A stretch of 64,000 nt of DNA from an uncultured Candidatus Saccharibacteria bacterium (GTDB lineage: Bacteria > Patescibacteriota > Minisyncoccia > Phycocordibacterales > UBA9973), in the NCBI GenBank assembly GCA_964496425.1, contig CAZBZO010000001.1, positions 140,368 through 204,367 on the forward strand, given 5' to 3'. Position 1 is the first letter of the stretch. Every line of letters starts with the position of its first letter. The notes under the pieces were generated by a model, which was not told the origin of the DNA, made no database searches, and worked only from the letters and a program-made list of their open reading frames with translations. The position numbers and the translations under genes are program-made. Positions 20,692-23,279 of this stretch are shown here, piece after piece.

Positions 20692-21108
20692 CTACTTACT
20701 ATTTTTATTTTTCCTTTCCAAAAATCGCTCGAGTATAATCGCCGCCGCGCGAGCGTCGAGGTTGGTAGGTTTTGTTGGAGCTTTTCCCTGGCGAGCATTC
20801 TTCCCTTCTTTCCCCTGTCGGCCATGTGCTTCAAATGATGTGAATGCTTCGGTTACCTGTTCAACAGGAAGCATCGTCACCAAAGAAATCTGCCCGATGA
20901 ATTCATTGATATCGGTTTGCACTTTATTTTCTCCGGAATTGCCCACGACCATAGCTTCTACACCTTCTGTGGCTATGATTTTCTCAATTTCTTCAATCAG
21001 TTTTGAGTCGTTTTTAAGTACCGTAAGGGTACGCACAATAGTCCCACTTTCGTCTGAAAGGGCCAGGCCGACACGTTTGGTGCCATAATCAATGCCTAAA
21101 TATCGCAT
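20692..21108 (-). CDS. yqgF: YqgF/RuvC-like Holliday junction resolvase family (putative pre-16S rRNA nuclease)
   Basis: MRYLGIDYGTKRVGLALSD N-terminal RNase H-like motif; about 138 aa. Confidence 0.8.
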   Translation of the reverse strand: MRYLGIDYGTKRVGLALSDESGTIVRTLTVLKNDSKLIEEIEKIIATEGVEAMVVGNSGENKVQTDINEFIGQISLVTMLPVEQVTEAFTSFEAHGRQGKEGKNARQGKAPTKPTNLDARAAAIILERFLERKNKNSK

Positions 21109-21143
21109 ATGCAGAGTGTACCATACCCAAAGTCAGCGTAATT

Positions 21144-21527
21144 TTATCCAAATACTTGATTGAGTTTTTGGGCGAGCTCATACTGCTGATTGTACGAAAG
21201 ATACTCAAGGGACTCTAAAGCTTCATGATTATTTGGGTCAAGAATTGAAAGGGCTTCTTTAAGATCGTTTTCAAGTTTTGCGTCTCGTTTATCGATAACA
21301 AATCCTCGAGACCGGAAAAATTTTATTAAAATCAAGACTTCCCTTTCTGTAAAATCTGGATTATTGTCATCTTTTTTTCTAATATCTGCAAATTTACACA
21401 AATCAACACAAAATTTTCTTAACCTCTCTTCTATGGCAACTTCGGCCGCAGATAGATGCCACACTTCTGTTTCAGTGCTAAATTTAAACGCGATTGTATC
21501 TGGCCTTTTTATTTCAAAAATTTGCAT
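21144..21527 (-). CDS. Hypothetical protein (127 aa)
   Basis: ORF immediately downstream of the metallopeptidase-like gene, with the same orientation. Confidence 0.45.
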   Translation of the reverse strand: MQIFEIKRPDTIAFKFSTETEVWHLSAAEVAIEERLRKFCVDLCKFADIRKKDDNNPDFTEREVLILIKFFRSRGFVIDKRDAKLENDLKEALSILDPNNHEALESLEYLSYNQQYELAQKLNQVFG

Positions 21528-23192
21528 TTAGTAACTGTACATGGAGAACCTGATATCGCTCGCTTGCTTACTTCTTTCGTCCGAATATAATTGATTAATA
21601 TCGATTATCCTTAAAGAGGTACTCCAGCGCTTATTATATGCTTCCAAAGCAATCCGTTCTTTTTCTGAACTTTGCTTACCGAGAGCACAGATCTTTGCAA
21701 ATTCTCTATAGACTTCGTTGTTATCCAAGACTAAATCATCCATGTTTTTACTCGTATCGTCCGCAGAGTTCAAGAGATCTAAGATATTTCTATACCCGTG
21801 CTTCTGCGCTACAGAATCGAGCTCATCCTGACCAGATAAAATAATCGCCCAAAAAAGCGAATCGTACTGCTTGTCTACCGCTTCCATATTTACAAGTTCT
21901 GATAGTTCCTGTGCCTGTTCGGGTGCAAGTTTAGGTTTTTTATATACTTCACTTTGCATTACTTCAATTCTTTTTTCGATAGCAGAATCTATGTTAAATG
22001 TTGGATCTTTTTTCTTAATTAGAAATTCTACAAGTTCTACATCTTTCGGTGCTAGATTTTTCTTCCCAAACGCCAGATACTCTCCACATATCTCAGCCCA
22101 ATATTCTTTTGTTTTGGTATAAAGTTCAATTTGCTTATCATCATTTTTAATAAGATCTACATACGCACTCTGAAAACGGTTTGGGGCATAGACGCGATTA
22201 CTTACTTCAAATAGCAGGTCGAGTCGTTCAATAGGAGTAAGTCCTTCTACTGTCTCCCAATCATTCGCATGTCCTGATTCATGAGAAATTGCTTCAAAAG
22301 CGAAATTTGGATCTTGTAACTCGTAGTTTCGAAGAAGAATCTCCTTGGACGCTGAATTGAAATGTGCCGCTTCGCTTCCCGTAATGTTGTATGCAGAATT
22401 CATTGCACTGCCTGTAGTATCGTTTGTAAGAATCATTTTCTCTACTTCTGTTGAAAACCATCCCTTTGGATATGTTTGCTCTATGATTTTTTGTAGTTGC
22501 GGTATAGTAAGCGTGTCATATCGAGGTCCTTCAAAACGGTAGTTTTCAAAAACTAACTTATTTTCTTCGTTTATTGAAGTTGAGTCAACGTCGTCTGATA
22601 TATCAAGGATGGAATTAAGCTCCTCATATTCGTTTGAGCGTCTGGTGTCTTTCAGATTTTCTATTTCTTTTTGCGTATTCTTATATTCCTCTGCGTAAAT
22701 ATTCACAAAAAGATATCCTGGGGCTTTTATTGGTATAAAAATTCCAAACATAGCCGCTTCTTTCAGATTATGTTGAGAGAAATGAGTAGTTTCTATATCA
22801 TTGTTTGTAATACCCTGGTTTCTTTCTATATTATTTTCAAATTCTCCAGGTGTCTGCAGAAAACTGATATTAGACTCACCGAGCATTTCCGCAACCCGCG
22901 TATATTTTTCTTGATATGAAGCTGTGTTATTTTCAATAGCATATTCCTTCAGTAAATTTTTTGCTTTTTCATACTCTCGTTCAGCTACCTGACGTTTAGC
23001 AACTTCTACGCCGATACTTAAAACAGCCGCCGATAACGTTGTAAAAAGTGCCTTTTTGAGCACATTCTTTACAAGACGTTTGTAACCTGGTGGTGCTTGT
23101 ATTGATTCGTTTTTTACTTCAAGAAGAATAGTGGAAAGCTCGGTTTCTTTATTCTCTTGAAGATTTGGAGGGCTAAAATTTTCAGTACCCAT
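21528..23192 (-). CDS. Membrane-anchored HEXXH zinc-metallopeptidase-like protein (554 aa)
   Basis: N-terminal TM segment; HESGH (HExxH) motif in the C-terminal half. Confidence 0.5.
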   Translation of the reverse strand: MGTENFSPPNLQENKETELSTILLEVKNESIQAPPGYKRLVKNVLKKALFTTLSAAVLSIGVEVAKRQVAEREYEKAKNLLKEYAIENNTASYQEKYTRVAEMLGESNISFLQTPGEFENNIERNQGITNNDIETTHFSQHNLKEAAMFGIFIPIKAPGYLFVNIYAEEYKNTQKEIENLKDTRRSNEYEELNSILDISDDVDSTSINEENKLVFENYRFEGPRYDTLTIPQLQKIIEQTYPKGWFSTEVEKMILTNDTTGSAMNSAYNITGSEAAHFNSASKEILLRNYELQDPNFAFEAISHESGHANDWETVEGLTPIERLDLLFEVSNRVYAPNRFQSAYVDLIKNDDKQIELYTKTKEYWAEICGEYLAFGKKNLAPKDVELVEFLIKKKDPTFNIDSAIEKRIEVMQSEVYKKPKLAPEQAQELSELVNMEAVDKQYDSLFWAIILSGQDELDSVAQKHGYRNILDLLNSADDTSKNMDDLVLDNNEVYREFAKICALGKQSSEKERIALEAYNKRWSTSLRIIDINQLYSDERSKQASDIRFSMYSY

Positions 23193-23207
23193 AGTTTTTA
23201 TAGAATG

Positions 23208-23279
23208 TCATATAATCAGTCTACTTTCAAGCGCAAGTTTGATCCGTTTGATGCCAAAATCAATACCTAAATATCGCAT
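23208..23279 (-). pseudogene. Truncated duplicate of the yqgF 5' end (23-codon remnant MRYLGIDFGIKRIKLALESRLII*)
   Basis: About 88% nucleotide identity over about 34 nt with the start of yqgF at 21065-21108; ends 15 nt upstream of the 554-aa gene start. Confidence 0.55.

Follow-up and report, generated by a model that had tools for sequence, protein, structure and literature searches.

Why does the beginning of ruvX (yqgF) occur twice, in the same orientation, on either side of two genes without any family assignment? The question arises from a 64,000-nucleotide (nt) stretch of contig CAZBZO010000001.1, from an uncultured Candidatus Saccharibacteria bacterium (the window; coordinates refer to it), in which intact ruvX is preceded by a cassette encoding a 554-amino-acid (aa) protein with an HExxH motif and a 127-aa partner, and the cassette in turn by a truncated copy of the ruvX 5' region. 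The answer reached here, which we regard as reasonably probable, is that a two-gene accessory module was added immediately upstream of ruvX by flank-homology recombination in a Paceibacteria-type genome. The process would be of a known kind, cassette accretion by flank-homology recombination that leaves orphan gene-end remnants; new here are a previously unannotated two-gene module in Patescibacteria and the predicted capture of a leaderless promoter. The locus, with open reading frames (ORFs) and signals in the order read along the minus strand, is arranged as follows.

24462-24374, minus: tRNA-Ser(TGA)
24347-24027, minus: GIY-YIG ORF
23995-23324, minus: Vut_1/YhhQ gene, queuosine-precursor transporter and upstream neighbour (Pfam Vut_1, E=6.6e-55; TIGR00697, E=1.5e-37)
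23229-23326, minus: left repeat copy, made of ruvX' codons 1-17, the 44 nt upstream of them and the stop of Vut_1
23294-23286, minus: extended -10 box TGcTAAGCT of the left copy, ending 6 nt before the remnant ATG
23279-23208, minus: remnant ORF MRYLGIDFGIKRIKLALESRLII*, 23 codons, made of ruvX' codons 1-17 and 6 unrelated codons
23193-23228, minus: left junction, 36 nt from the end of ruvX homology to the ATG of the 554-aa gene, made of the last 6 codons of the remnant, its TGA stop and a 15-nt spacer
23192-21528, minus: gene for the 554-aa HExxH protein (N-terminal hydrophobic segment, helical region, predicted zincin-like domain at about residues 213-420, helical C-terminus)
22995-23063, minus: borderline hydrophobic segment, residues 44-66, a possible signal anchor (Kyte-Doolittle 19-residue mean 1.54)
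22283-22269, minus: HESGH codons CAT GAA TCA GGA CAT, residues 304-308
21527-21144, minus: 127-aa partner gene, its start abutting the stop of the 554-aa gene
21058-21146, minus: right (functional) repeat copy, made of ruvX codons 1-17, the 35 nt upstream of them and the TAA stop of the 127-aa gene
21123-21115, minus: extended -10 box TGgTACACT of the right copy, ending 6 nt before the ruvX ATG, a predicted leaderless promoter
21108-20692, minus: intact ruvX/yqgF, 138 aa (Pfam RuvX, E=1.5e-23, residues 1-131)

The direct repeat (21058-21132 against 23229-23303) covers 75 nt at 72% identity, with an exact run of 14 nt (ATGCGATATTTAGG). Over ruvX codons 1-17 the two copies share 41 of 51 nt (27/30 in the first 30 coding nt) and the remnant agrees with RuvX at 13 of 17 residues; similarity ends past codon 17. 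Upstream of the ATG it continues in both copies for 24 nt (GGTATGnTAnnCT). Beyond a 9-nt indel, past which the right copy extends to ATAAAATTACGC, the block ATAAAATT(A/T)CGC in each copy directly adjoins the stop of the gene before it, so that the duplicated segment is estimated at about 89-98 nt, from the stop of the upstream gene to ruvX codon 17. The original prediction, made from the letters of the window, had seen the first 8 codons of yqgF and the sequence before them recur ahead of the cassette; the recurrence is real and reaches over 17 codons. The 23-codon truncated ORF that it described, stopping (with TGA) 15 nt before the 554-aa gene, was found again, and the 2.1-kb segment between the copies does hold only the HESGH-encoding 554-aa gene and the 127-aa gene. 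A full-length RuvX domain has about 130 aa with catalytic acidic residues; the remnant has codons 1-17, then diverges and stops, and is a gene fragment, not a RuvX. Two of its substitutions, Y8F and G14K, fall at positions without variation among the N-termini of the RuvX proteins listed for relatives.

Chance similarity, or convergence of two independent short ORFs and promoters, might be entertained because conserved motifs as short as the ruvX N-terminus and the -10 box are involved. However, when the 131-nt spacer was aligned locally with the whole window on both strands, the best match was ruvX with a score of 33, against a maximum of 22 in 100 shuffles (mean 15.6, standard deviation 1.4), and the flank-against-flank test at this locus gave z=16. 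The match is co-linear through promoter, ATG and 17 codons, lies in the same orientation and brackets the cassette exactly. Moreover, among the ruvX sequences compared, the remnant matches that of the window best (41/51); the 80 relatives reach 38/51 at most. A chance origin of the repeat is effectively refuted, and its probability is negligible.

The relatives comprised 80 ruvX loci, one genome per species, all Patescibacteria-type and mostly labelled Paceibacteria, with RuvX identities of <=48%; the RuvX N-terminus MRYLGIDYGTKRVGLALSDE is conserved across them. No homologue of the 554-aa protein, the 127-aa protein or Vut_1 was found within 6 kb of ruvX in any of the 80. The adjacency of yqgF and the transporter gene, named in the original prediction as a point to be compared in relatives, is thus found at none of these loci, and the cassette likewise. 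Downstream of ruvX, synteny is conserved in relatives (580-aa genes in some, then tRNA_bind and VTT). Upstream, tRNA-Ser(TGA) is divergent and only 65-90 nt from ruvX in many relatives (e.g. loci L007, L009, L018, L028 and L048), and in the window it is co-directional with ruvX, lies 3.2 kb away and is followed by the GIY-YIG ORF. The differing placement of tRNA-Ser and the lack of cassette and Vut_1 in relatives indicate that the space upstream of ruvX is lineage-specific, and from the sequences compared the entire interval from tRNA-Ser to ruvX looks like a variable zone. At one relative locus, L008, a GIY-YIG ORF likewise stands beside tRNA-Ser(TGA).

The composition of the cassette also sets it apart. 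Its G+C content (GC) is 0.35 in the 554-aa gene and 0.37 in the 127-aa gene against a window gene mean of 0.436+-0.036, and its GC at third codon positions (GC3) is 0.27 and 0.31 against 0.405+-0.058, about 2 standard deviations lower; the GC comparison proposed earlier for the cassette therefore puts both measures under the window means. Its absence from the 80 ruvX loci, the other contexts of the module elsewhere and the low GC3 support the reading of the segment as an insertion. A recent insertion, as implied in the original prediction, is not supported: the repeat is only 72-80% identical, which makes a very recent in-situ duplication unlikely, each of the contigs read that has the exact RuvX or 554-aa protein (five samples) also has the cassette, and exact-sequence look-ups for RuvX and Vut_1 returned no empty-site allele.

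The same design recurs elsewhere. In a metagenome scan, 80 loci of the module family were fetched, and the 250 nt upstream of each module were aligned with the 300 nt downstream. Flanking direct repeats scoring >=24 were found at 10 of 52 dereplicated modules and at 4 of 603 size-matched single genes or gene pairs from unrelated ruvX loci (Fisher p=3e-9); at a score of >=28 the counts were 7/52 and 2/603 (p=4e-7), giving odds ratios of 36-47. The four control hits were a tandem paralogue pair, a tRNA gene pair, an AT-rich intergenic repeat and a short 32-nt repeat. Significant repeats flank the modules at L095, L096, L101, L103 (identical to L104), L110, L156 and the window locus, and weaker ones those at L117, L119 and L152 (identical in sequence to L154 and L155). 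They differ from locus to locus, are built from the ends of neighbouring genes and measure 38-160 nt. Module edges are tight: the partner stop lies -12 to +58 nt from the right repeat, and on the left side 13-76 nt intervene. These comparable repeats make the window locus one case of a recurrent design. The duplicated segments at the other loci are as follows.

L095: the first 22 codons of a pheT-like gene, with the last 8 codons of pheS as a second duplicated element
L096: a duplicated terminator hairpin
L101: the 3' end of tyrS, recurring past the module
L103: the 3' end of mnmA, recurring past the module
L110: a 160-nt stretch at the 3' end of a C39-peptidase/Big_5 gene, recurring after the module
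L119 and L152/L154: the promoter or 5' leader of the downstream gene (ATG included in L119), repeated ahead of the module
L156: three copies of the 3' end of a class II aminoacyl-tRNA synthetase (aaRS) gene and two of the end of a CxxCxxCC gene

Homologues of the cassette occupy at least four gene contexts other than that of the window, among them the positions between tktN and tktC (L005), between rpe and tktN (L006), and beside a gene for an FN3-rich secreted protein (L087). No flanking repeats were found at L005 and L006, where the junctions are clean.

Several of these loci hold further arrangements of the same parts. In L156 (2889-6108) the aaRS 3' end occurs intact, then again after an inserted pair of Ddl and CxxCxxCC genes, then after the HExxH module, and these three ends point to successive additions at one site. 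L117 (2429-4353) apparently contains two tandem module copies. Immediately ahead of the module at L152 (839-1313) and L154 (4018-4492) are two small genes (76 and 83 aa) that look like a pair of antitoxin and RelE-ParE-type toxin. On the L095 contig, pheS is intact at the pheS/pheT junction (2865-5984) and three unrelated cassettes are separated by chimeric remnants of the pheT 5' and pheS 3' ends; pheT itself is present only as fragments of 22-39 codons.

The nature of the repeats bears on how the module was added. In L110 all 9 differences between the copies, over 159 nt, are synonymous and at third positions, and 7 of the 9 fall in the last 35 nt; in L095 the 4 differences of the pheS 3' copy are likewise all synonymous. 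Differences that are synonymous only and clustered make the copies look like functional alleles joined by homologous recombination, and not like decaying duplicates. Both loci also contain chimeric junctions. The array at L095 reads pheS, a GNAT-like gene, pheT5'.pheS3', the module, pheT5' (with a degenerate pheS3') and another gene, so that the 5' end of the downstream gene is joined to the 3' end of the upstream gene. In L110 (6562-6777), an intact chimeric ORF of 71 codons combines a copy of the first 22 codons of the module with the final 50 codons of the C39-peptidase gene that lies upstream. The permuted order of these chimeras fits a circle or tandem junction, which argues against target duplication from a staggered cut.

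The classes of element that might account for such a locus were compared with these features. No transposase, integrase or defence-system match was obtained for the module in Pfam, PADLOC, PHROGs or NCBIfam, and no terminal inverted repeats were found at module ends (z<=1.3 in 7 loci, z=0 in the window). The locus accordingly lacks the marks of a transposon or insertion sequence, namely a transposase, terminal inverted repeats and a target duplication of fixed length; the flanking repeats of the family span 38-160 nt and are taken from gene ends. Nor does it resemble an integrase island or integron: scanning of the genes beside the window module (Pfam, NCBIfam) gave no recombinase, repeat sequences vary by locus, and there is no room for an attC site because the partner stop abuts or overlaps the right repeat. 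Several features expected of a cassette exchanged through flanking homology are present, in that mobility genes are missing, the flanks are housekeeping genes, and recombination tracts occur in the flanks of L110 and L095.

The recombination route proposed for the window locus, by analogy with the other loci, is the following. Incoming or sister DNA would bring the module together with a piece of ruvX, and the host's own recombination would presumably add it. A single-crossover (Campbell-like) event, homology-facilitated illegitimate recombination or an unequal-sister event would each duplicate, and not replace, a short gene end. The product would be Vut_1, then promoter and ruvX codons 1-17, then the module, then promoter and intact ruvX. 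Patescibacteria have been reported with competence and homologous-recombination genes (PMC12455944), and tandem duplications can arise by transformation (PMC3784515).

A number of observations weigh against this reading. The window copies differ at 4 synonymous and 4 non-synonymous codons, 2 of the latter at residues invariant in the listed relatives, a pattern that fits a donor allele and a decayed in-situ duplicate alike. Their longest exact run, 14 nt, is short for a RecA-dependent crossover. No empty-site allele or close relative was found among the sequences searched, so that any direction or timing assigned to the event is presumptive. The control set of the enrichment consists mostly of core genes, and part of the enrichment may for that reason reflect the accessory, often-exchanged nature of the module. 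A standard sigma-70 scan returned no full -35/-10 promoter at either copy, and the putative anchor of the 554-aa protein (residues 44-66) is of borderline hydrophobicity.

A purely local history, in which the ruvX 5' region or the whole of ruvX was duplicated in tandem and its upstream copy mostly lost or replaced, or in which ruvX 5' region and module were duplicated together and partly deleted, would not tie the repeat to transfer between genomes. Tandem module copies do exist (L117), L110 retains the 5' stub of a second module copy, tandem paralogues such as the 580/582-aa genes are common nearby, and the remnant carries substitutions at RuvX residues invariant in the listed relatives, as a decaying pseudogene would. 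Such a history leaves unexplained the arrival of the module at so many different loci, its low GC3, and the synonymous-only clustered differences in L110 and L095, which point to allelic donor DNA; it is considered unlikely. The pair might instead belong to a dedicated mobile element, whose machinery, encoded by the pair or supplied in trans, makes long and variable target duplications (about 40-160 nt), preferentially at gene ends, so that genes stay intact and a promoter is gained. The strong and family-specific enrichment of flanking repeats (with the odds ratio given above), their derivation from the target with differences between loci, and the tight boundaries, with the partner stop at the right repeat and the short left gap, would be expected of such an element. 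Against it stand the peptidase-like fold of the larger protein, which has no nuclease or recombinase signature, the lack of terminal inverted repeats or conserved ends, the variation in repeat length (38-160 nt), the clean junctions at L005 and L006, and the absence of any relative among viral contigs; the chimeric junctions and synonymous-only allelic copies also misfit duplication at a staggered cut. We judge this element quite improbable, and give equally little credence to its strictest form, in which the HExxH protein and its partner are a minimal self-propagating element that inserts at the ends of housekeeping genes, duplicates the promoter plus 5' end or else the 3' end over long stretches of variable length, and inherits their expression signals while the host gene survives. 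If the enrichment did reflect a dedicated mechanism, and not frequent flank-homology exchange, this would be a new kind of mobile element; a self-propagating pair would be mobile with no known recombinase, in a way perhaps peculiar to competent, repair-poor Patescibacteria.

Under the preferred explanation, addition by flank-homology recombination, the module would have acquired a copy of the ruvX promoter. A TAnnnT hexamer separated by 6 or 7 nt from the ruvX ATG was found in 57 of the 80 relatives. Most other offsets have counts of 1-5 loci, and a secondary peak at offsets 11-12 is due to TATGnT, which overlaps within the same motif; 28 of the 57 hexamers follow a TG at the extended -10 position. 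Both window copies have TG at -15/-14 and TAnnnT at -12 to -7. The 6-nt spacer between -10 box and ATG is identical at 0 of 6 positions between the copies, which shows that conservation is focused on the -10 element and the start region. A -10 box so near the ATG implies a leaderless mRNA, and Shine-Dalgarno-like motifs precede only 5 of 55 window genes. Given the negative sigma-70 consensus scan, which also found no terminator in the spacers, the promoter argument rests on the comparative analysis of the -10 element. By the position of that element, the lack of a Shine-Dalgarno site and conservation in orthologues, both copies are predicted to be promoters of the leaderless type. The capture of the ruvX promoter and start region, as first proposed, is thus supported, since both copies keep an extended -10 box in the leaderless-type position seen at ruvX in the 57 relatives.

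Cassette expression would then start from the copied ruvX promoter. The left -10 box would drive a leaderless module mRNA beginning with the 23-codon remnant ORF, ribosomes would re-initiate at the 554-aa gene 15 nt past the remnant stop, and ruvX would retain its own promoter copy. The remnant ORF and the 554-aa gene share a reading frame, 87 nt apart, with a single TGA between them; this arrangement, with the stop 15 nt before the ATG, suits termination and re-initiation on a leaderless transcript as the mechanism of translation. TGA is a rare stop in the window, ending 5 of 52 genes. A further contribution to expression of the 554-aa gene could come from a weak TGATTATAT box 22 nt upstream of its ATG, which is similar to the promoters that the modules themselves have in L006, L092 and L093. 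The 3' end of rpe, which adjoins the module in L006, was considered as a source of the 36-nt left junction (LESLV* against LESRLII*); the similarity was not significant, and a shared -10-like box explains it better. Elsewhere in the window, TGnTAnnnT ends 5-8 nt before the start codon at many operon-first genes (e.g. 15981, 28455, 44686 and 50386), a pattern which suggests that leaderless transcription may be widespread in this genome.

Searches of Pfam, NCBIfam, PHROGs and PADLOC gave no match to either cassette protein. Among 5.8 billion proteins, the 554-aa protein had only four other close homologues, and at all five loci a partner of 127-130 aa follows directly. In the wider family a partner homologue was detected downstream of the HExxH gene in 36 of 60 dereplicated members, starting -80 to +60 nt from its stop. 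The co-occurrence of the 554/127 pair, put forward earlier as a check, therefore holds at the five close loci and is detectable in part of the family, not in all of it; distant partner homologues directly downstream of the HExxH gene mark the pair as a conserved module. An exhaustive hidden Markov model search with the five full-length proteins returned 619 representative clusters at E<=1e-3, 80 of them at E<=1e-30, most being proteins of 330-400 aa that have the central domain in common, and a profile word-index search with a 51-sequence alignment returned only the same five proteins.

Across 51 family members H304, E305, H308, R333, S342, Y344, E363, Y364 and D384 are invariant, so that the HESGH motif at residues 304-308 is an HExxH motif kept throughout. 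Possible candidates for the third zinc ligand (Glu) and the catalytic Tyr of a gluzincin arrangement are the invariant Y344, E363 and Y364 and the near-invariant E346, 36-55 residues past H308. The predicted structure is similar in fold to solved anthrax-lethal-factor-like (ATLF / M34) members. The window protein and 10 relatives gave no Pfam or NCBIfam match to that family, and the only sub-threshold matches for HExxH proteins were to SprT-like and M48. Foldseek comparison of the full 554-aa model with the PDB returned nothing at E<=0.001, and PDB sequence searches with profiles A2 and A3 gave spurious coiled-coil matches or none. By modelled fold and by motif, then, the 554-aa protein appears to be an anthrax-lethal-factor-like zincin, although not a demonstrated member of the family. 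Relatives have hydrophobic segments comparable to that at residues 44-66, and the L156 protein has a lipobox-like LASGC. The 127-aa protein is predicted to be a small alpha/beta protein (predicted local distance difference test, pLDDT, 72) with no informative structural match.

From these features the 554-aa product is probably an extracytoplasmic zinc metallopeptidase and the 127-aa product its cognate small cytoplasmic protein, peptidase activity and partner role being presumed. Tox-ALFMetallopeptidase is a recognised polymorphic-toxin domain class with linked immunity genes (PMC3482391), which makes an effector/immunity-like role for the pair plausible and, by analogy, a reasonable guess. 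As in toxin-immunity pairs, the two genes form a conserved adjacent pair with the small gene immediately downstream. A phage origin was unsupported, as no relative of the module was found in IMG/VR.

Gene gain in Patescibacteria is poorly understood because their genomes are tiny and hold few recognisable mobile elements. The window locus and ten or more analogous ones provide a searchable signature of gene gain, a cassette bracketed by the duplicated end of a neighbouring gene, and the locus illustrates how an inserted cassette can gain a leaderless promoter while an essential neighbour stays undamaged. A sizeable unannotated two-gene family is defined at the same time, with 619 representative clusters of the protease domain; from the anthrax-lethal-factor-like fold and the close linkage of the partner, its function in episymbiotic bacteria may be effector/immunity-like.

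Other features of the window were noted in passing. NCBIfam RuvX models score under their curated cut-offs for the intact RuvX. Downstream of ruvX, at 17171-20689 on the minus strand, lies a tandem pair of genes for Cys-rich paralogues (580 and 582 aa, with 41% identity and no family matches); such 580/582-aa genes stand between ruvX and the tRNA_bind gene only in the window, L007, L008, L016 and L036. AATAAA(AA)TAGTAAGTAG precedes each of the two, and for the first gene this is the 3' end of ruvX. On the opposite strand beside tRNA-Ser lies a 125-aa ORF (24609-24986, plus; GC 0.34; no family matches) that may be foreign too. At 44881-44954 (minus) ARAGORN called a 'tRNA-Stop(tta)', which Rfam also scored as a tRNA (70.4 bits). 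An alternative reading of its anticodon loop is CUUUUAA, as is canonical for tRNA-Lys(UUU), over a stem of four pairs; it is probably a mis-registered tRNA-Lys and not a UAA suppressor. More genes of the window end in TAA (38/52) than in any other stop.

Integrative elements such as tRNA-gene-targeting islands duplicate a gene end at attL and attR. The locus is like them in its direct repeat of a gene terminus and in the intact copy of the target gene that is supplied or preserved, but unlike them it has no integrase and no constant att core, its targets vary, and the element consists of only two genes. Neisseria minimal mobile elements are generally described as moving by transformation and recombination in flanking genes, and as clean replacements at one site across strains. 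The resemblance lies in whole-gene cassettes between conserved genes with no transposase or integrase; in contrast to them, the flank is duplicated here, sites differ by lineage, and no alternative cassettes between Vut_1 and ruvX are known. PMC1538595 cites the concept of the Neisseria minimal mobile element (Saunders & Snyder 2002). Campbell-type integration and transformation-induced merodiploidy (PMC3784515) share with the locus direct repeats of a homologous segment on either side of inserted DNA, and hybrid allelic repeat copies and circle-junction-like chimeras are possible in such events. In documented cases the repeats are hundreds of bp or more and the duplications large, whereas the repeats here are gene ends of 40-160 nt, and the events are reconstructed from sequence only.

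The effector-immunity arrays of type VI secretion systems in Vibrio cholerae, and the orphan modules of Rhs and contact-dependent inhibition systems, have been proposed to originate by homology-facilitated illegitimate recombination (PMC5361080). The present modules differ from such arrays in being anchored at the end of an unrelated housekeeping gene (ruvX, pheT, tyrS, mnmA or aaRS) and not at a conserved toxin N-terminal region. They also show no linkage to secretion-system genes, have their peptidase domain in the middle and not at the C-terminus, and include a 127-aa partner that matches no known immunity fold. They share with polymorphic toxins an HExxH domain that is anthrax-lethal-factor-like by predicted fold. 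As in effector-immunity and polymorphic-toxin arrays, two-gene modules without mobility genes are added beside a conserved anchor sequence, and the additions leave duplicated or displaced fragments of the anchor gene and build up arrays, as at the pheS/pheT junction of L095.

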